A stretch of DNA of 64,000 bases from a virus (Duplodnaviria > Heunggongvirae > Uroviricota > Caudoviricetes), in the IMG/VR virus record IMGVR_UViG_3300025697_002467; one strand, given 5' to 3'. Shown one piece after another: positions 6,299-61,845 of the stretch. Every line of letters begins with the position of its first letter. The first letter of the stretch is position 1. The position numbers were made by a program, and so were the translations under genes. Below the pieces are notes generated by a model, which was not told where the DNA came from, did not search any database, and was given only the letters and a program-made list of their open reading frames with translations.

Positions 6299-7168
6299 TT
6301 ATAAAATGGTTCCGGGAGAAGGAATCGAACCCTCGTCTGATGAACCAAAATCATCCGTCTTGCCGTTAGACGATCCCGGAATGTATCCTTTTTTTACCCA
6401 TTTTCTTATTGAAGTATTACTAACTCCCAACATACTAGCAACCTCCAACTGGGTTTTTTCTTTTAGCAGTATTAAAAGTTCTTGAAAAGATATATCTACT
6501 GGGATAGCTTTTGTTTTCATTATGCAAAAGAAACATAACCCAGATTTACCATGTTTTGTGATTGCACGGCCACATTTTTTACAATTATATGCCTTTTTTC
6601 GTTTGGAAGCCCCACAAAAAGTAGGTTGCTGGCTGTTGCAATTAGGGCATAGTAGACGTAAATTTTCTAATCTGTGATCGTCTCGGACTCCGTTTATATG
6701 ATCCAAAACTAGAACTAATGGTTTCTTGTCCCACATAGGGAGCAACCCGCAAAGGACACATTTGTTTTTTAGTATTCCTTCGTGTAAAAGACGTTTTTTC
6801 AAATGACCCCTACTGTAAGTAGAGTGTTCCACCATTATTTTTTCAAGTGGTCTTTTCTGTGCTTGTCTGCGTTCCTTTAGTTTCCCACAGTTCTTTTTTA
6901 AACTGTTTCGTACAAACTCATTGTAATCTAAACCCATTTCTTGCATTCTGTTTTTTACAGTATAGTGGTTCCCCCCAACCCCTTTCAACCCAAAAAACTC
7001 TAATACTTCTCTAATGGAATCACTATTGTTTAGAAGTTCGATGAATTTGTCGTCTTCTAATTTCCATATAGGGCTTCTTCGTTTTCTAGTGTGCATACAT
7101 AAACCTCTGTTATTAATAGTTAGAACCTGTACTATTATCAATGGTATAGGTTTTTTAGAATAAGTCAA
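6299..7168 (-). CDS. HNH homing endonuclease with a C-terminal HTH-like domain
   Basis: LDHINGVRDDHRLENLRLLCPNCNSQ HNH core. It is a paralog of the 24065..24778 gene. The last ~25 codons read through tRNA-Gln in antisense. Confidence 0.8.
   Translation of the reverse strand: MTYSKKPIPLIIVQVLTINNRGLCMHTRKRRSPIWKLEDDKFIELLNNSDSIREVLEFFGLKGVGGNHYTVKNRMQEMGLDYNEFVRNSLKKNCGKLKERRQAQKRPLEKIMVEHSTYSRGHLKKRLLHEGILKNKCVLCGLLPMWDKKPLVLVLDHINGVRDDHRLENLRLLCPNCNSQQPTFCGASKRKKAYNCKKCGRAITKHGKSGLCFFCIMKTKAIPVDISFQELLILLKEKTQLEVASMLGVSNTSIRKWVKKGYIPGSSNGKTDDFGSSDEGSIPSPGTIL
6307..6380 (-). tRNA. tRNA-Gln (anticodon TTG)
   Basis: Acceptor TCCGGGA/TCCCGGA with a U1:A72 pair typical of tRNA-Gln, anticodon stem GATGA/TCATC, loop TTTTGGT, short D-arm. 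Confidence 0.7.
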
Positions 7169-19434: not shown

Positions 19435-21447
19435 TTAGAAAATGATTTTAATATCCCGTCTGAACGACCCTCTTACTCGGCACACTACCGAGTTTTTCTT
19501 CGTAGAGGAGAACCCCAGACCAGATAACTGATTGTCAGTACCTTCTATCGTTGTTTTGGAACCGACGATTTCAAGAACTTTACGGTGTTTATCAAGTTCG
19601 GTTGTGAGAAATTCATTGAAGAACCCACGAGCCTTGCCTTCATGCTTACAGCCTTCCAAGAAGAAGAAACAATGTCTGTTTCCTACTGGTTTGTCACCCC
19701 AATAGTTCGGGGAAAACATTACAGTCTGTACCTTATGGAAAGACTGAGTTGTAACATTCCAGATCGTCTTCGGAGTTTGACTGGTCGGTAAGGACGAAAG
19801 AATCTTGAATACTCCATCCTTGTACTGGATTCGAGCTACCTCTACAGTTTTCTTTGAAGGGAGGGCATTTGGGTAACTCATATGGAAAATGTTACCGTCA
19901 AATTCAATCTCTACTTCAAATCCTACATTCGTAGTGTTTCTCTTAGAATACTGATTAACACTGAGAACATAGATACCATTCTTCATCTTACGACGGTTTG
20001 GGTATGTGATGTTCTCAACAGGATCAACAGAGTTGTTCCTACCACCAGCATTCATATCTACGTCAAGTCTTCCACCTGTGCTAACTGAGCGTTTAGTACT
20101 GAAATGTATATGGTACCCACCAGCTTCTTTCATGTGGAGATCCAAATCGTCAGAGTTGAACCAACTCAGTGAACATCTGAGATCACCTGTAACATCTCCT
20201 CCGGCCTTCTTAACTCTTTCTTTAATAGAGTCAGCTACTTCCCCTGCATAACTCCAGGAAAAAGCATTCGGCCATTTGAACATCAAAGGGGCATGTTCTT
20301 GCTCTGGTGCAACCAAGCTGACAAAGTTTGGGTTGTGACGGTTTTCTACCAGAAGCTCAAGACTTTCAGCTTTAGGTAATACTTCTTTAAGGAAAATATC
20401 AATAGAAACCTCTTCCATTTTATCAGAGCTTTTGATCTTTTCAGAAGTTCCGGCAGCTACTTCATCAAACACGTCATTCATCAGTTCTTTTGCAGAACGA
20501 TCAGCAAACAACACATCGGTAGCCGAGATGTCTTCCAGTACAGCAAGGCGTCTTTCGATGGATGGTAAGAAGCCAAGGTCTTCGATTGTTTTTTTGGCTT
20601 TGGCTACCATAGTTTTGGTTACTAATGCCGTTGGACGTTTGTAGTTTTCAGGTGCAACTTTTGCTTCAAAAGAACCTACTGCATGATCCAATGCAACTTC
20701 ATTGGACAAGTCAACAAGCAGAGTACCTATTGAAGTGCTTCGGATTCTGAGTGTTGCTTCTGAACCAGACTGAACTTTTGACCAGCAGAAAAACGTCTTG
20801 TTTTCAGCTTTATCAAACTCAGTTTTCAGCTTTTTGAAGGCTGTAACTATAGCCTTCTGCTCTTCACCACGGTAAAGGGAATTCTGGCCGATGAGTTCAA
20901 GAACGGTATCAATAGCATCAACTTTGATTTCTTCCAAAGAACGGAACATCACATCAAAGGTTGAACGGTATCTGCCGAGCTTGGTTCCAATGTCTGATTT
21001 CTGGCATTGTAAACTTGCAGGGAGTTTGAGATAAAAGTGTTCCCATTGAATCCTGTCGGTGGTGCCTTCTTTTTCCTCAAAGTTCTTGTCCACTCCAATA
21101 GCACTTTCACTGTGAAGGAAGACGTTTTCAATAGCACAGGACTTCACAAGAGCGGATAAAGCATCCGTAACAGGTTGATAACCCTCACCAACCTCTACAT
21201 CCCACAGGCTTACCAACTCACCCTTATGGATGACAACCATACCACCAGCTTGTTTAATGAACTGACGGCAGCAAGAACAATCGTGTTCCGTTCGTTCTCG
21301 GAAAATTGGGTTAGTGCCTTCTTCAAAAGAATTCAGGTAAGTTTCCCAGAGCAGGTCTCTGTCGACATTTACTCGAAAAACACTACCTAACTTTTGCATT
21401 TTGCTAAAATGCACACTTATAGCTTTTTTAAAAATTGAAAAATTCAT
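19435..21447 (-). CDS. large hypothetical protein (670 aa)
   Basis: Long uninterrupted ORF with a CSCC motif near the N-terminus. No domain could be assigned by eye. Confidence 0.6.
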   Translation of the reverse strand: MNFSIFKKAISVHFSKMQKLGSVFRVNVDRDLLWETYLNSFEEGTNPIFRERTEHDCSCCRQFIKQAGGMVVIHKGELVSLWDVEVGEGYQPVTDALSALVKSCAIENVFLHSESAIGVDKNFEEKEGTTDRIQWEHFYLKLPASLQCQKSDIGTKLGRYRSTFDVMFRSLEEIKVDAIDTVLELIGQNSLYRGEEQKAIVTAFKKLKTEFDKAENKTFFCWSKVQSGSEATLRIRSTSIGTLLVDLSNEVALDHAVGSFEAKVAPENYKRPTALVTKTMVAKAKKTIEDLGFLPSIERRLAVLEDISATDVLFADRSAKELMNDVFDEVAAGTSEKIKSSDKMEEVSIDIFLKEVLPKAESLELLVENRHNPNFVSLVAPEQEHAPLMFKWPNAFSWSYAGEVADSIKERVKKAGGDVTGDLRCSLSWFNSDDLDLHMKEAGGYHIHFSTKRSVSTGGRLDVDMNAGGRNNSVDPVENITYPNRRKMKNGIYVLSVNQYSKRNTTNVGFEVEIEFDGNIFHMSYPNALPSKKTVEVARIQYKDGVFKILSSLPTSQTPKTIWNVTTQSFHKVQTVMFSPNYWGDKPVGNRHCFFFLEGCKHEGKARGFFNEFLTTELDKHRKVLEIVGSKTTIEGTDNQLSGLGFSSTKKNSVVCRVRGSFRRDIKIIF

Positions 21448-21940
21448 TTGTATTACTCCTTTGTGATGTCTGTTTATCTAAGTGGCTTTGACCACTAGCT
21501 CATTCAATATTACCCTAAAAAAGTTTGAATGCACCCCCAACGACCGATGGGCCGTACTCCTAATGTGAATTATAGAGACCCGTAAAGTTGCACCTAGGCA
21601 CCATGTCACATCACGGTGATTCCTAGTCAGGCTTCAACGACTGGGAGAACATTCAGGCCGGTAATTAATCGGCCTCTTTCAAATTTAAAAGAATACCCTA
21701 CTGGGTTTGCACCAGCATCTCCCTACTCCACGTAGGGCGGTCTTAATTAGACGAAGGGCTCTCGTAAAACAATCCAACTAATACCAAGTTCTTAAAAGGC
21801 TAAGACTGCCTCATGGTATTGTTTTCATGTCTCACTATTCAAATTCTATGTTGGACAACACGACCTTTGCACCCTACGGGTCATCCTAAGATGTAACCTA
21901 CGGGTTATCTAGTCATGTCGTCTAACATAGAATCGAAAAA

Positions 21941-22016
21941 TGGTGGAGCTGGCGGGAGTCGAACCCGCTACCTCTTGAATGCCATTCAAGCACTCTACCA
22001 GATGAGCTACAGCCCC
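21941..22016 (-). tRNA. tRNA-Ala (anticodon GGC)
   Basis: Acceptor GGGGCTG/CAGCTCC with a G3:U70 pair, anticodon stem CTTGA/TCAAG, loop ATGGCAT, encoded CCA. Confidence 0.8.
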
Positions 22017-22288
22017 AAAATATGTCGGTAGTAGTGACGATAAAACAGTCGTCCCATTTATAACCCCATGCGGGGTAACTACCTAAATTTTCAGACAATA
22101 ATGATAAACCTTGTTAGTTCCTAGCTCCATCTATCCAATAAGCATCCGGCTAAACGACCTATCCGGCAGGTATTTGTATTATCATTATCACCATATCAAG
22201 TTTCTTAAGATGGGCGTCGAAAGGCTTTAAGGAAACCGCGTCAACGACGAGATTCAATAAAGGTTGACCCCTTCAACTAACCCGCTTT

Positions 22289-22600
22289 CTATTTTCTTTT
22301 CAAAGGTTCAAACCAAGTGTTTTCTTCATTTTCATCAGCCCATTCGTTGGCTATGTGTTCTGCTTGGTAGGGATTAGTTCTCCCGTCTCCAAAGTAGATA
22401 GCACCCCAATCAAGATCTCTACTACCCGCTTTACCACGGTTACGATCTTGACGATGAATGAAGTTGAAGTCCTCTTCTTCAATGTGAAGAAGTTGTCGTA
22501 TTTTACGACGAATTGCCCGACTTGTAACTTGCTTGCCTTTTTTGGAATGATTTCCACCAGTGGCAAAGCTAAATGCAGGCTTACGGTATGACCGTGACAT
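22289..22600 (-). CDS. small basic protein (MSRSYRK family; paralog of the 17902..18168 gene)
   Basis: The internal Met of the listed 22289..22690 ORF gives MSRSYRKPAFSF...; it shares its N-terminal motif and basic character with the other copy. Confidence 0.5.
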   Translation of the reverse strand: MSRSYRKPAFSFATGGNHSKKGKQVTSRAIRRKIRQLLHIEEEDFNFIHRQDRNRGKAGSRDLDWGAIYFGDGRTNPYQAEHIANEWADENEENTWFEPLKRK

Positions 22601-23395
22601 TGTGACCTCCTTTTTAAAGGTTTCACAACATGACGGACCTCCTTCCTTGGTTAAAGATACTGAGCTGTAGGCCAAAAATACCCACACCATCTAATAGATG
22701 CCTTCACTTAGGCAAAGGTACTCAGTAAGTCATTCAGTATATTATGCCGAGCTATGAGTCATGAACTCATCAACCAATCTTTAAGTAAAACACACTCCCA
22801 AAGCTTAACTGAGAAGCTGATCAGCACTTGATACAGCTCGTAGGCAGCTACCTACAATGAATTACCAAACCAGATTAACCGCCCCTTACAGGAACAGGGA
22901 CTCTCGACATAATACACCGAACAGTTTAAATTATCAACCCTTAGCAGGGATTGAACCTGCATTCTCCACTATACGTGGCATCCTACCGTTAGAAGATAAG
23001 AGTTAGATGTGCAATCCCCTAAACAATCAAAGCCTTTCCTAGGATGCTCTTCTTTAATCTAGGTTCTTACAATTATCAAAAAACCGGTGGGTAACAGACA
23101 ACCGTGAAAGGATTGTTACTTCCTATCTCGGCAAAGAGACAGATGAGTACCTTATGGTTGATGCCTTTAGTGAGGTTGGACTAGCTTTGCAGAGCATACC
23201 AACTGAACTAATGCAGAGGTCTGAAACCCTAATTACCTTATTCAATATCCTATCAGGAAATGCAGTTCCAGACAGTTAGATTTGAACCAACGTCCTCCTG
23301 CACTCTGGCAGGTGCTCTACCAGACTGAGCTACATCCAGATTTGCATGACCTGATACGATATTGAATTGCTATTTAGTTTTCAATGAACGTCTTT

Positions 23396-23432
23396 CTTAC
23401 TACAACAACCCACGGGAATCCAAAACTAAGCC
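23396..23432 (-). promoter_or_regulatory. conserved promoter-like motif, copy 4
   Basis: Extended form TTCTTACTACAACAACCCAC...AAACTAAGCC. Confidence 0.45.
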
Positions 23433-23444
23433 AAAGTTGTAAAA

Positions 23445-23519
23445 TGGAGACCCCGACGGGGATTGAACCCGCGTTACCGGATTGAGAGTCCAGCTTCCTA
23501 GCCACTAGAAGACAGGTCC
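23445..23519 (-). tRNA. tRNA-Glu (anticodon CTC), tentative
   Basis: D-arm CTTCTAGTGGCTAGGAAG, anticodon stem CTGGA/TCCGG, loop CTCTCAA, T-arm GCGGGTTCAATCCCCGT, encoded CCA. The acceptor has one A:G mismatch. Confidence 0.5.
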
Positions 23520-23771
23520 TTAATTTTTAGTTTCTTTTCTCCAAGTTACTGTTTTTAATTTGGGTTCTTGTGGTTTGTAGTTTTCCATACTATCACCAAA
23601 TACCCTTACAAGACCTACATTATTAACTGCTGCTGTTGAGTTTGTTGGTGTAGGGTTTGTTTTTATAACTTCTGGACAATGTTCACAATGAGGACATAAA
23701 GTCCAATCATTTGTGATTTCTTTTGAAGGAAACCATTCTAAACATTGCTGGCATTGTTTACGTTGTTCCAT
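23520..23771 (-). CDS. hypothetical zinc-ribbon protein
   Basis: The listed 23520..23969 ORF runs through two tRNAs; the internal Met (MEQRKQCQQC...CPHCEHC) gives an 83-aa product. Confidence 0.4.
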   Translation of the reverse strand: MEQRKQCQQCLEWFPSKEITNDWTLCPHCEHCPEVIKTNPTPTNSTAAVNNVGLVRVFGDSMENYKPQEPKLKTVTWRKETKN

Positions 23772-23797
23772 AGTAAAATAATCTCCTAAGTAAAAAA

Positions 23798-23989: not shown

Positions 23990-24065
23990 TGGTGGGACTG
24001 GGGCGGCTCGAACGCCCTACTTACGAATTAAAAGTTCGTTGCTCTACCTGTTGAGCTACAGTCCC
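23990..24065 (-). tRNA. tRNA-Lys (anticodon TTT)
   Basis: Fully canonical cloverleaf: acceptor GGGACTG/CAGTCCC, anticodon loop CTTTTAA, encoded CCA. Confidence 0.85.
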
Positions 24066-24778
24066 TAATGGTTTCTTAGGTGTTTCCGAATGGCATTATC
24101 AGAAACCCCAAGTTTTTTTGCTACTTGTGTCATAGGCATACTGTTTACTAACACCATCAAGTCTTTATAGGATGGCCATTCTATTTTAGTGGGCCTTACC
24201 CTTGACTTTTCTGCACAAATTTTACATTGTTGTGAAGTATGGAACTTTACTCTTCCACAAGAACAAATAGTTTTATCTGATTGAGGTTTTCGGTATTTAT
24301 TACGTCCTTTATAAGTAGGGAGTTGGGAATCACAATGAGGGCATATAATTCTTAAATTTTCTATCCTGTTATCAGAGCTATCCCCATTTATATGGTCTAA
24401 GTGTAAGATTAAAGGCTGACCTTTCCAGATTGGCTCCTGCCCACATAAGGAACATACATTATTTAAGAGTTTCTTTGACAACAACCGATGTTTTAAATTA
24501 TATGTTGATGTGTTTGGTGAATTAGAAACCAGTATCTCTGATAGTTTCCTTTTTTTATGATACCTACTAATATTATTTGATAAATGTGATACATCAACAC
24601 CATCATTAAGTGCTCTAGTTAATAATGTCATCCTGTTTGAACCTACAGGGCGTAACCCACATCTAGTGAGGGCTTCAGACATTGTTTTAGATACTTGGAT
24701 AATATCTCTAAATTCATCAATTGTTTTTTCATAAATAATACTAGGCATTTGAACCTCCATTCTTAGTGCTTTACACAC
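24065..24778 (-). CDS. HNH homing endonuclease with a C-terminal HTH-like domain
   Basis: LDHINGDSSDNRIENLRIICPHCDSQ HNH core; paralog of the 6299..7168 gene. Its stop codon abuts the tRNA-Lys 5' end. Confidence 0.8.
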   Translation of the reverse strand: MCKALRMEVQMPSIIYEKTIDEFRDIIQVSKTMSEALTRCGLRPVGSNRMTLLTRALNDGVDVSHLSNNISRYHKKRKLSEILVSNSPNTSTYNLKHRLLSKKLLNNVCSLCGQEPIWKGQPLILHLDHINGDSSDNRIENLRIICPHCDSQLPTYKGRNKYRKPQSDKTICSCGRVKFHTSQQCKICAEKSRVRPTKIEWPSYKDLMVLVNSMPMTQVAKKLGVSDNAIRKHLRNH

Positions 24779-26918: not shown

Positions 26919-27030
26919 ATAATAAGAAGGACCATGTAAGGAATCGAACCTTACACCAATTAACCGGCCTAGAGGGCCTATTTCTACGAGTACCAGTTAA
27001 ACAGACTCACCACAGAGGGGTCCATAATTT

Positions 27031-45027: not shown

Positions 45028-45063
45028 TTACCCCAACAACCCACAAGAAATGAAAACTAAGCC
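45028..45063 (-). promoter_or_regulatory. conserved promoter-like motif, copy 8 (minus-oriented half of a divergent pair)
   Basis: Back-to-back with the inverted copy at 45078..45113. Confidence 0.45.
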
Positions 45064-45077
45064 GAATTTGATTTTTT

Positions 45078-45113
45078 AGCTTAGTTTCGGGTAGTAGTGG
45101 GTTGTTGTAGTAG
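45078..45113 (+). promoter_or_regulatory. conserved promoter-like motif, copy 9 (plus orientation)
   Basis: AGCTTAGTTT-N9-GTGGGTTGTTGTAGTAG sits about 24 nt upstream of the ATG at 45134, the first gene of the plus-strand operon. Confidence 0.5.
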
Positions 45114-61810: not shown

Positions 61811-61845
61811 TACTACAACAACCCACAACTTTCAGAAACTAAGCT
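61811..61845 (-). promoter_or_regulatory. conserved promoter-like motif, copy 11
   Basis: Directly upstream of the RBS of the gene starting at 61796. Confidence 0.45.

Follow-up and report, generated by a model that had tools for sequence, protein, structure and literature searches.

Minus-strand RNA domains with tRNA-like folds and long helices occupy most of two gene-free gaps in a phage tRNA island and are candidate small RNAs or RNA-processing signals

The DNA analysed here is a 64,000-nt stretch (the window) of a Caudoviricetes virus, IMG/VR record IMGVR_UViG_3300025697_002467, and the region under study, positions 21448 to 23444, comprises two gene-free gaps on either side of one small gene. 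We found that most of this sequence consists of discrete RNA domains on the minus strand, among them long helices, hairpin modules and tRNA-shaped bodies, whose pairing is kept in related phages. An original prediction, made from the letters alone, had judged the gaps consistent with structured leaders or processed small RNAs rather than spacer DNA, and the domains described below fit that proposal. The reading that we favour, to which we assign a probability of about one half, is that the region is a chain of tRNA-derived, selected RNA domains that would be processed from a polycistronic precursor by an RNase III-type enzyme and by RNase P together with 3′-end processing. The domains are candidate small RNAs or RNA-processing signals outside described families.

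The comparative evidence comes from four lineages in Antarctic-lake-type metagenomes, that of the window and the three related ones that were found, all three as short contigs from the same lakes. Lineage R2 (contigs L027 and L026, 100% identical over their overlap) encodes a small protein 77% identical to that of the window; the corresponding proteins of L028-L030 and of L031 are 70% and 64% identical.

The strongest signal in the region, stronger than the short hairpins on which the original prediction dwelt and missed by it, is a set of three long inverted repeats. As minus-strand RNA they form helices of 19-28 bp, which define elements A (repeat I1), B (I2) and C (I3). By length, A and B rank second and third among the inverted repeats of the window, and C lies between them. 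None of 200 shuffled sequences reached these helices, and folding z-scores for A, B and C were −6.8, −7.7 and −6.9 on the minus strand against −4.4, −5.7 and −2.9 on the plus strand. Across the three helices, nine one-sided substitutions keep pairing through G-U, three are compensatory, four pairs are gained and two lost; the G-U pairs of these long helices are valid only for minus-strand RNA.

The helix of element A (arms 23367-23343 and 23264-23240) closes a tRNA-like cloverleaf (23340-23265) that lacks CCA; its D and T arms are canonical, its acceptor stem is rich in G-U pairs, and a 6-nt loop caps a 5-bp 'anticodon' stem. For the whole element, the minimum free energy (MFE) was −55.9 kcal/mol and z was −6.2 to −6.8. 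Its core (23267-23339) scored 45 bits with the Rfam tRNA model RF00005, and ARAGORN reported it as 'tRNA-???' with a 2-nt anticodon. A homologue is present in R2 (L027, 978-1130), in which the helix shows one compensatory change, one G-U change and two gained pairs with no loss; an internal loop of the helix is not conserved. The D, T and acceptor arms are kept in R2 and the anticodon arm is replaced, with 17 nt in the window versus 42 nt in R2. The helix and the tRNA 'top half' are ∼92% identical between the two lineages, compared with ∼83% for adjacent coding sequence.

Further along the minus strand, tRNA-like 2 adopts a cloverleaf as its MFE structure both in the window and in R2 (L027, 1134-1206; 35.6 bits). 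Element C follows, with helix arms at 22921-22903 and 22751-22733 and an MFE of −72.7 kcal/mol on the minus strand versus −39.5 on the plus strand. Its cargo includes a degenerate tRNA-like (22813-22746), which ARAGORN detected only under relaxed settings; the 3′ strand of its acceptor stem overlaps an arm of the helix. In the R2 homologue of C (L027, 1455-1627), all three arm differences keep pairing through G-U, and ARAGORN calls a 72-nt 'tRNA-Leu(TAA)', again without CCA. Between the two versions of this tRNA-like, the T stem carries a compensatory change (U-A to C-G) and the T loop reads UUCAUGA in the window and UUCGAAU in R2. In L031, an unrelated 25-28-bp helix enclosing ∼153 nt (743-951) occupies the position of C upstream of the small gene, which suggests that at this place position rather than sequence is what is kept.

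The tRNA-likes are a class apart from the canonical tRNAs of the window. Across the whole window the Rfam tRNA model recovered exactly 27 tRNAs plus A and tRNA-like 2. A CCA is encoded at the 3′ end of all 27 canonical tRNAs, nearly all of which are directly followed by a T-rich run, and in none of the three tRNA-likes checked (A core, tRNA-like 2 and C cargo). Nor do the tRNA-likes have a readable 7-nt anticodon loop: that of A has 6 nt, that of tRNA-like 2 has 5 nt, and that of the C cargo is degenerate. With loops of 5-6 nt or degenerate ones and no CCA, four domains of the region are tRNA-shaped and yet unable to decode or to be charged as encoded. A parent tRNA was sought for the tRNA-likes among the tRNAs of the window and none emerged, identities being generic (58-70%). 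Another CCA-less tRNA-like, found by ARAGORN at a relaxed threshold only, lies at 26929-27008 (minus strand) directly upstream of tRNA-His, where the folding z-score is −4.6, with two strong intrinsic terminators ahead of it (27173-27138 and 27068-27034, minus strand). Long helices enclosing T-arm-like motifs were also sought generically at 87 loci, a scan too unspecific to inform.

Beyond the small gene, modules G, E and F lead up to the tRNA-Ala gene. Module G is present in the window and R2 and deleted in L028; E is conserved in the window, L028 and L026, with its pairs kept in all three. In an alignment of G, E and F from three sequences (alignment A1), 97.8% of cells are paired versus 36-50% in slid controls. 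Six compensatory pairs were counted in it, five of them in F helices, a count reached by 2 of 500 shuffles.

Element B comes directly after tRNA-Ala. Its core arms (21933-21912 and 21864-21843) enclose two ACCCGUAGG-type hairpins, and with an MFE of −45.2 kcal/mol and z of −7.5 to −7.7 it is the top-scoring 140-nt segment of the whole 64 kb. B is found at the same site in L028, with a compensatory C-G to U-A change. In R2 it is absent after tRNA-Ala and stands elsewhere, between the promoter motif and A (L027, 776-975), with a 158-nt cargo. The two modules that follow B were compared between the window and L028, where 10 of their 44 pairs change and none is broken. Six one-sided G-U-type changes and one compensatory change fall in the bulged hairpin D, and one compensatory and two G-U changes in the mini-cloverleaf H. 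The middle ('anticodon') hairpin of H has a 5-nt loop (CCCTAC-N5-GTAGGG) and its T-like loop reads UGCAAAC; the Rfam tRNA model does not recognise this module.

Conservation, whose lack would have counted against the original prediction, is real but patchy. Downstream of tRNA-Ala, R2 lacks a block of ∼450 nt that includes B, D, H and more, and the empty B site is visible in L026. About 236 nt and about 220 nt are specific to this genome. The first of these, the spacer between A and tRNA-like 2, gave no blastn block against the relatives and no Rfam match and is not significantly structured (z = −1.1). The second (21691-21472), weakly structured, makes up most of the leader of the downstream 670-aa gene, of which only 21471-21448, the last ∼25 nt before the ATG, align with R2. 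Within conserved blocks, indels of 1, 2 and 10 nt occur. None of the modules has a second copy in the window, a search of IMG/VR with the arm patterns of A and B returned nothing, and blastn of the whole region against GenBank phages matched only tRNA-Ala. Taken together, the covariation check that had been called for found pairing kept in the three related lineages, with small counts, and part of the non-tRNA content of the island is under RNA-level selection. The features are collected in Table 1.

Table 1. Features of the region in their order along the minus strand.
Feature	Position	Strand	Remark
Promoter-like motif GGCTTAGTTT-N9-GTGGGTTGTTGTAGTA	23398..23432	−	∼30 nt upstream of element A
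Element A, 25-bp helix with tRNA-like cloverleaf	23240..23367	−	Inverted repeat I1
Spacer specific to this genome	23004..23239	−	Absent in R2, where A abuts tRNA-like 2
tRNA-like 2, cloverleaf, 5-nt 'anticodon' loop, no CCA	22936..23003	−	Rfam tRNA, 37 bits
Element C, 19-20-bp helix enclosing 151 nt	22733..22921	−	Inverted repeat I3
Leader of the small gene	22601..22732	−	Conserved mini-ORF ATG-TTG-TGA, 22631-22623
103-aa basic protein gene (the single small gene)	22289..22600	−	Strong Shine-Dalgarno sequence
Module G, hairpin domain immediately downstream of the stop codon	22212..22283	−	Alignment A1, helices 1-3
Module E, 13-bp A-U-rich closing helix with two internal hairpins	22094..22192	−	Alignment A1
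Module F, Y-shaped, 7-bp stem with two hairpins including CCCCATGCGGGG	22027..22083	−	Ends 10 nt before tRNA-Ala
Canonical tRNA-Ala(GGC), encoded CCA and T-run	21941..22016	−	ARAGORN; Rfam, 63.9 bits
Element B, 22-28-bp helix	21838..21938	−	Inverted repeat I2; starts 7 nt after the CCA of tRNA-Ala
Module D, long bulged hairpin	21764..21835	−	z −2.5 (minus strand) versus −0.7 (plus strand)
Module H, mini-cloverleaf, 5-bp closing stem with three hairpins	21695..21759	−	Same cloverleaf MFE in window and L028
Leader of the 670-aa gene	21448..21694	−	Moderate structure, z ∼ −2.9; includes the GGCCG-N9-CGGCC hairpin

Most of the individual features named in the original prediction are there. Neither 21448-22288 nor 22691-23444 holds an open reading frame (ORF) of 60 aa or more on either strand, and ARAGORN and Rfam agree that tRNA-Ala(GGC) is the sole canonical tRNA. 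Two further tRNA-like elements are significant in Rfam, the core of A and tRNA-like 2. The named hairpins were located at 21655-21675 (AGGCCG-N9-CGGCCT), 21721-21737 (CCCTAC-N5-GTAGGG) and 22063-22076 (ACCCCATGCGGGGT), with CCTACGGGT occurring twice within 21868-21909. The claim that both gaps are dense in perfect short hairpins was right for 21448-22288, with 14 against 5.8 ± 2.8 in shuffled sequence (3 of 200 shuffles reach 14), but not for 22691-23444, where 7 against 5.7 is no enrichment.

The small gene is indeed the only gene between the gaps, but its extent had to be corrected. It most likely starts at 22600, where a strong Shine-Dalgarno (SD) sequence, AAGGAGGT, lies upstream and where the 103 aa given by metagenome gene callers begin; the upstream gap hence spans 22601-23444. 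The two-codon mini-ORF in its leader is preceded by a separate GGAGG at a distance of 6 nt, is followed ∼20 nt further on by the SD of the 103-aa gene and is present in all four lineages (the window, L027 at ∼1730, L028 at ∼88 and L031 at ∼994); it may be a start-stop or coupling element. A hidden Markov model search placed the 103-aa protein in an uncharacterised family of basic, ∼100-aa proteins (52 clusters at 50% identity; consensus MSRSxRKP...GSRD.DwGW.yFGDG...RK), for which no Pfam or PHROG match was found. Neither tblastn of the 103-aa protein against GenBank phages nor a scan of IMG/VR returned anything, and an AlphaFold2 model from a 4-sequence alignment was unusable (predicted local distance difference test score 50). 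Elsewhere among phages, closely spaced ORFs surround the gene, with no adjoining tRNAs or gaps, and family members on high-GC phage contigs (L087-L089, 3001-3306) likewise lack nearby tRNAs. We considered the protein as a dedicated partner of the RNAs, a role that this context leaves unsupported.

On the other side of the region, the 670-aa protein (19435-21447, minus strand) belongs to DUF8224/phrog_1735 and has relatives of 40-56% identity in >550 phage records, including phiCbK-like phages, phiRSL1 and many Salmonella and Klebsiella phages. Sequence and profile searches gave no PDB match. Among its new relatives in IMG/VR and JGI metagenomes for which upstream DNA is available, the nearest are only 55-56% identical and lack tRNAs upstream.

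Lake samples in ENA and JGI yielded 17 contigs with identical DNA encoding an identical 103-aa protein. One of them is 402 kb long and includes the window, which evidently comes from a huge phage of roughly 400 kb. The first 27 kb of the window form a minus-strand tRNA island with its 27 canonical tRNAs at 1116-26917, between which lie genes of nucleotide metabolism and tRNA-related genes, those for a dUTPase, a dCMP deaminase, a SpoU methylase and PTH2. Phage genomes had been described as otherwise tightly packed, which does not apply to the island: 23% of it lies outside both tRNAs and ORFs of at least 90 aa, and the two gaps, although among its largest, are accompanied by other large ORF-free gaps.

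All 27 tRNAs and the local genes are on the minus strand. The 35-nt promoter-like motif upstream of A, one copy of which the original prediction had correctly placed there, occurs 13 times in the window versus 0 expected, each copy co-oriented with genes; further examples lie at 45078-45112 (plus strand) and 61811-61845 (minus strand), and a divergent pair of copies makes a palindrome at 45029-45112. The copy upstream of A is kept at the same place in R2 (L027) and L031, and, following the direction of transcription, the motif does not recur until 14242. Inside the region we found no terminator with a GC-rich stem and U-run of the type present at 27173-27138, and consensus scans for sigma-70 promoters and terminators stayed at chance level. 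Given the co-oriented promoter motif upstream and the lack of an internal terminator, the region is most likely transcribed on the minus strand, within a mixed tRNA-mRNA unit.

Several observations concern gain and loss of DNA in the island. Two HNH homing-endonuclease genes lie within it (24065-24778 and 6299-7168, both minus strand) and are plausible drivers of cassette-like gain and loss between relatives. A 278-bp segment (23520-23797, minus strand) with a Cys-rich 76-aa ORF (23750-23520; CxxC...CPHCEHC) is inserted between tRNA-Gly(TCC) and tRNA-Glu(CTC), which are only 4-5 nt apart in R2 and L031. On the minus strand, TTGAAT stands at the 3′ boundary of A (23240-23245), directly after B (21837-21842) and at 21502-21507, the end of the block missing in R2. 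Its plus-strand form ATTCAA is ∼5-fold enriched in 21400-23500, which holds 5 of the 27 copies in the window, and these boundaries may be a recombination or insertion hotspot.

Under the favoured reading, transcription would start from the promoter motif at 23432-23398 and run along the minus strand through A, tRNA-like 2, C, the leader and small gene, G, E, F, tRNA-Ala, B, D and H into the 670-aa gene. An RNase III-type enzyme is proposed to cut this tRNA-mRNA precursor at the long helices, whose 19-28 bp are the right length for a double-strand-specific endonuclease, and RNase P and 3′ tRNA-processing enzymes would cut at the tRNA and tRNA-like bodies. Such cutting would free the real tRNA-Ala, give hairpin-protected ends to the mRNAs of the small gene and the 670-aa gene, and release compact, nuclease-resistant small RNAs from A (a tRNA 'top half' on a helical handle), C and B. 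The elements could thereby be stable small RNAs, processing and stability punctuation, or both, and selection would preserve the helices together with the acceptor/T/D 'top half' recognised by tRNA-processing enzymes, but not the anticodon arm.

A number of points weigh against this scheme. Transcription and cleavage, like the cleaving enzymes and a trans-acting role of the released RNAs, are steps that we infer. The covariation counts are small because they come from three lineages, sampled as short contigs in one set of lakes, and some of the agreement is built in, since these very sequences served in part to derive the structures. RNase P would be hindered rather than helped by a tRNA-like body whose leader and trailer are fully paired. 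Whole modules (B, G and the 236-nt and ∼450-nt blocks) are gained or lost between relatives, so no single one is indispensable. Finally, no RNase III gene was found among the 46 window ORFs scanned, and a host enzyme must therefore be assumed.

A bolder version of the favoured reading goes beyond processing. In it, A, C and possibly B would represent a new class of phage non-coding RNA in which a tRNA 'top-half' mimic, or a variable cargo replacing the anticodon arm, is carried on a ∼25-bp handle of double-stranded RNA (dsRNA) and acts in trans after release. Such an RNA might form a Y-RNA-like scaffold that works independently of Ro. It might instead act as a decoy or sponge, titrating host factors that bind the tRNA elbow and acceptor, or dsRNA; tRNA-targeting defence nucleases, RNase P/Z, the CCA-adding enzyme and RNase III could be its targets. 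We regard this version as rather unlikely.

The patchwork of modules could also mean that the region is evolutionary debris, made of decaying tRNA pseudogenes and recombination scars, for example HNH-driven ones, with helices devoid of function. Degenerate tRNA-likes such as that of C with its altered T loop would be expected then, as would modules present in one close relative and absent from another, two weakly structured genome-specific blocks, the two HNH genes and the other large ORF-free gaps of the island. Decay, however, should strike all parts of a tRNA equally, whereas in A the helix and the top half outconserve coding DNA and only the anticodon arm is replaced. Nearly all helix substitutions, among them G-U changes that suit only the transcribed strand, keep pairing, and helices of 19-28 bp with z around −7 do not arise by chance; we consider debris unlikely, if far from negligible. 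Small palindromic mobile DNA invading the tRNA island (miniature inverted-repeat transposable elements or hairpin elements), with the helix arms as terminal inverted repeats, would account for the different sites of B (after tRNA-Ala in the window and L028, in the gap between promoter and A in R2) and its visible empty sites. It would also account for the termini shared by A and B (ATTCWATRT ... AYATWGAAT), the recurrence of TTGAAT at module boundaries and a cargo that varies from 45 nt to 152 nt. Yet each element is single-copy in the window and none was found in IMG/VR, no transposase was found nearby, and there is no clear target-site duplication, the R2 junction offering only short, ambiguous ATT/CAATT overlaps. 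Moreover, the arms change by compensatory and G-U substitutions and the plus strand folds much worse, which points to RNA-level constraint, not to transposase-binding ends, and makes mobile DNA an improbable explanation. That the gaps hide unannotated short protein-coding genes is less credible still. Several ORFs of 30-58 aa exist, and a metagenome gene caller predicts one of 41 aa on the plus strand (23154-23279). None of the short ORFs has a convincing SD, the 41-aa ORF overlaps an arm of A and belongs to a block that R2 lacks, no frame in the conserved blocks survives their indels of 1, 2 and 10 nt, and the sole conserved 'ORF' is the two-codon mini-ORF of the leader.

The original prediction had also raised remnants of a self-splicing intron or ribozyme, and had named riboswitches, RNase P-like and transfer-messenger RNA (tmRNA)-like RNAs as targets for an Rfam scan. 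A remnant or divergent form of one of these, a two-piece tmRNA, or a large RNA of the GOLLD/ROOL type would agree with a large, structured, ORF-free stretch beside tRNAs, as in GOLLD and ROOL, and with a weak tmRNA_permuted match at 21863-21968 (23 bits versus a threshold of 47), whose candidate tag frame ends in IEFE. That match is due to the T arm and CCA of tRNA-Ala, which also accounts for a hit of the tmRNA model below threshold, and ARAGORN finds no tmRNA. Rfam searches of the region and its sub-pieces, at gathering thresholds and in four sensitive scans (E up to 10), gave only tRNA-clan matches and noise, with no intron, ribozyme, riboswitch, RNase P, tmRNA, GOLLD/ROOL or YrlA. The region moreover consists of separable modules with independent indels, not of one large fold; for described families this explanation is essentially refuted, and overall its chances are minimal. 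A slim chance remains with Y RNAs, in which case A, and perhaps C and B, would be scaffolds of ribonucleoproteins in which a long 5′/3′ helix docks a Ro60/Rsr-type protein and a tRNA-mimicking module is the effector, as in bacterial and phage Yrn1/YrlA. The Yrn1 RNA of D. radiodurans has a long terminal helix that runs on into the acceptor stem, and a tRNA-mimicking module with a 5-bp anticodon-like stem and a 6-nt loop (PMC4201824), an architecture that A matches, stem and loop included. With Y RNAs in general (Yrn1; YrlA, RF02553), A shares a helix of its 5′ and 3′ flanks capped by a tRNA mimic with intact D and T arms and no free CCA; its tRNA module is oriented as in Yrn1 and, unlike that of YrlA, not permuted. 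Helix-only B and tRNA-like A stand in tandem in R2, like yrlB-yrlA, and phages are known to encode Y RNAs. Some jumbo phages encode TROVE proteins with tRNA-like partners (PMC7824862). The Ro/Rsr-binding motif of the Y RNA 5′ strand is GNCGAAN0-1G (or GGUCCGA) (PMC4201824), however, and a search of the minus strand across 21400-23600 found no GNCGAAN0-1G. Against a gathering score of 69 bits, the Rfam YrlA model reaches 14.6 bits and covers a D-arm fragment only, a Pfam scan of 46 window ORFs revealed no TROVE, vWA-Ro or RtcB, and the internal loop of the A helix is not conserved in R2. The 670-aa neighbour was tried as a hidden Ro60 and resembles neither Ro60 nor any other PDB chain by sequence or profile.

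The non-tRNA content of huge-phage tRNA islands is usually dismissed as spacer or 'pseudo-tRNA'. Here, acceptor, D and T arms are retained after the loss of decoding and CCA and are combined with long helices. If expressed, the elements would be new phage small RNAs or a new processing punctuation for mixed tRNA-mRNA operons, and a natural 'tRNA scaffold' displaying a variable insert. With four lineages they are a lead rather than a discovery, and they provide testable candidates for giant-phage RNA maturation or for manipulation of the host machinery that binds tRNA or dsRNA.

Several known systems resemble parts of the region. GOLLD and ROOL are large, ORF-free, structured phage RNA loci, typically located by tRNA genes and first seen in lake metagenomes. 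The region is likewise large, structured, ORF-free and adjacent to tRNAs; it differs from them in having no Rfam match and in being modular, with modules lost independently, where GOLLD and ROOL form one ornate fold. The species 1 and 2 RNAs of phage T4 (rnaC, rnaD) and the tRNA-region RNAs of T5 are stable non-tRNA RNAs of unassigned function, co-transcribed with tRNAs, and these clusters too contain small ORFs and homing-endonuclease genes. No sequence similarity to the region was detected, and we know of no long closing helices or loop-less, CCA-less cloverleaves among the T4 and T5 stable RNAs. tRNA-like processing signals are used in 'tRNA punctuation', in mascRNA/MALAT1 and in the gammaherpesvirus tRNA-miRNA-encoded RNAs (TMERs), where a tRNA-like is followed by hairpins. 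They share with the region non-decoding, CCA-less tRNA shapes embedded in longer transcripts, and the succession of tRNA-Ala and hairpins B and D repeats the layout of TMERs. These systems are eukaryotic or organellar and offer an analogy only; the Rfam mascRNA match in the region is tRNA-Ala alone (20.6 bits versus a threshold of 42.5). RNase III processing helices, finally, occur as the stems of rRNA operons and as the R sites of phage T7 early mRNA. They differ from the present helices, which bracket tRNA-like bodies or small hairpin cargos in a tRNA island and whose cleavage is putative. As in those sites, about two turns of dsRNA (19-28 bp with few mismatches) bracket structured RNA or lie between cistrons, and on the strand taken to be transcribed the paired stretches reach the ∼20 bp or more expected of an RNase III substrate, with 25 bp in A, 22-28 bp in B and 19-20 bp in C.

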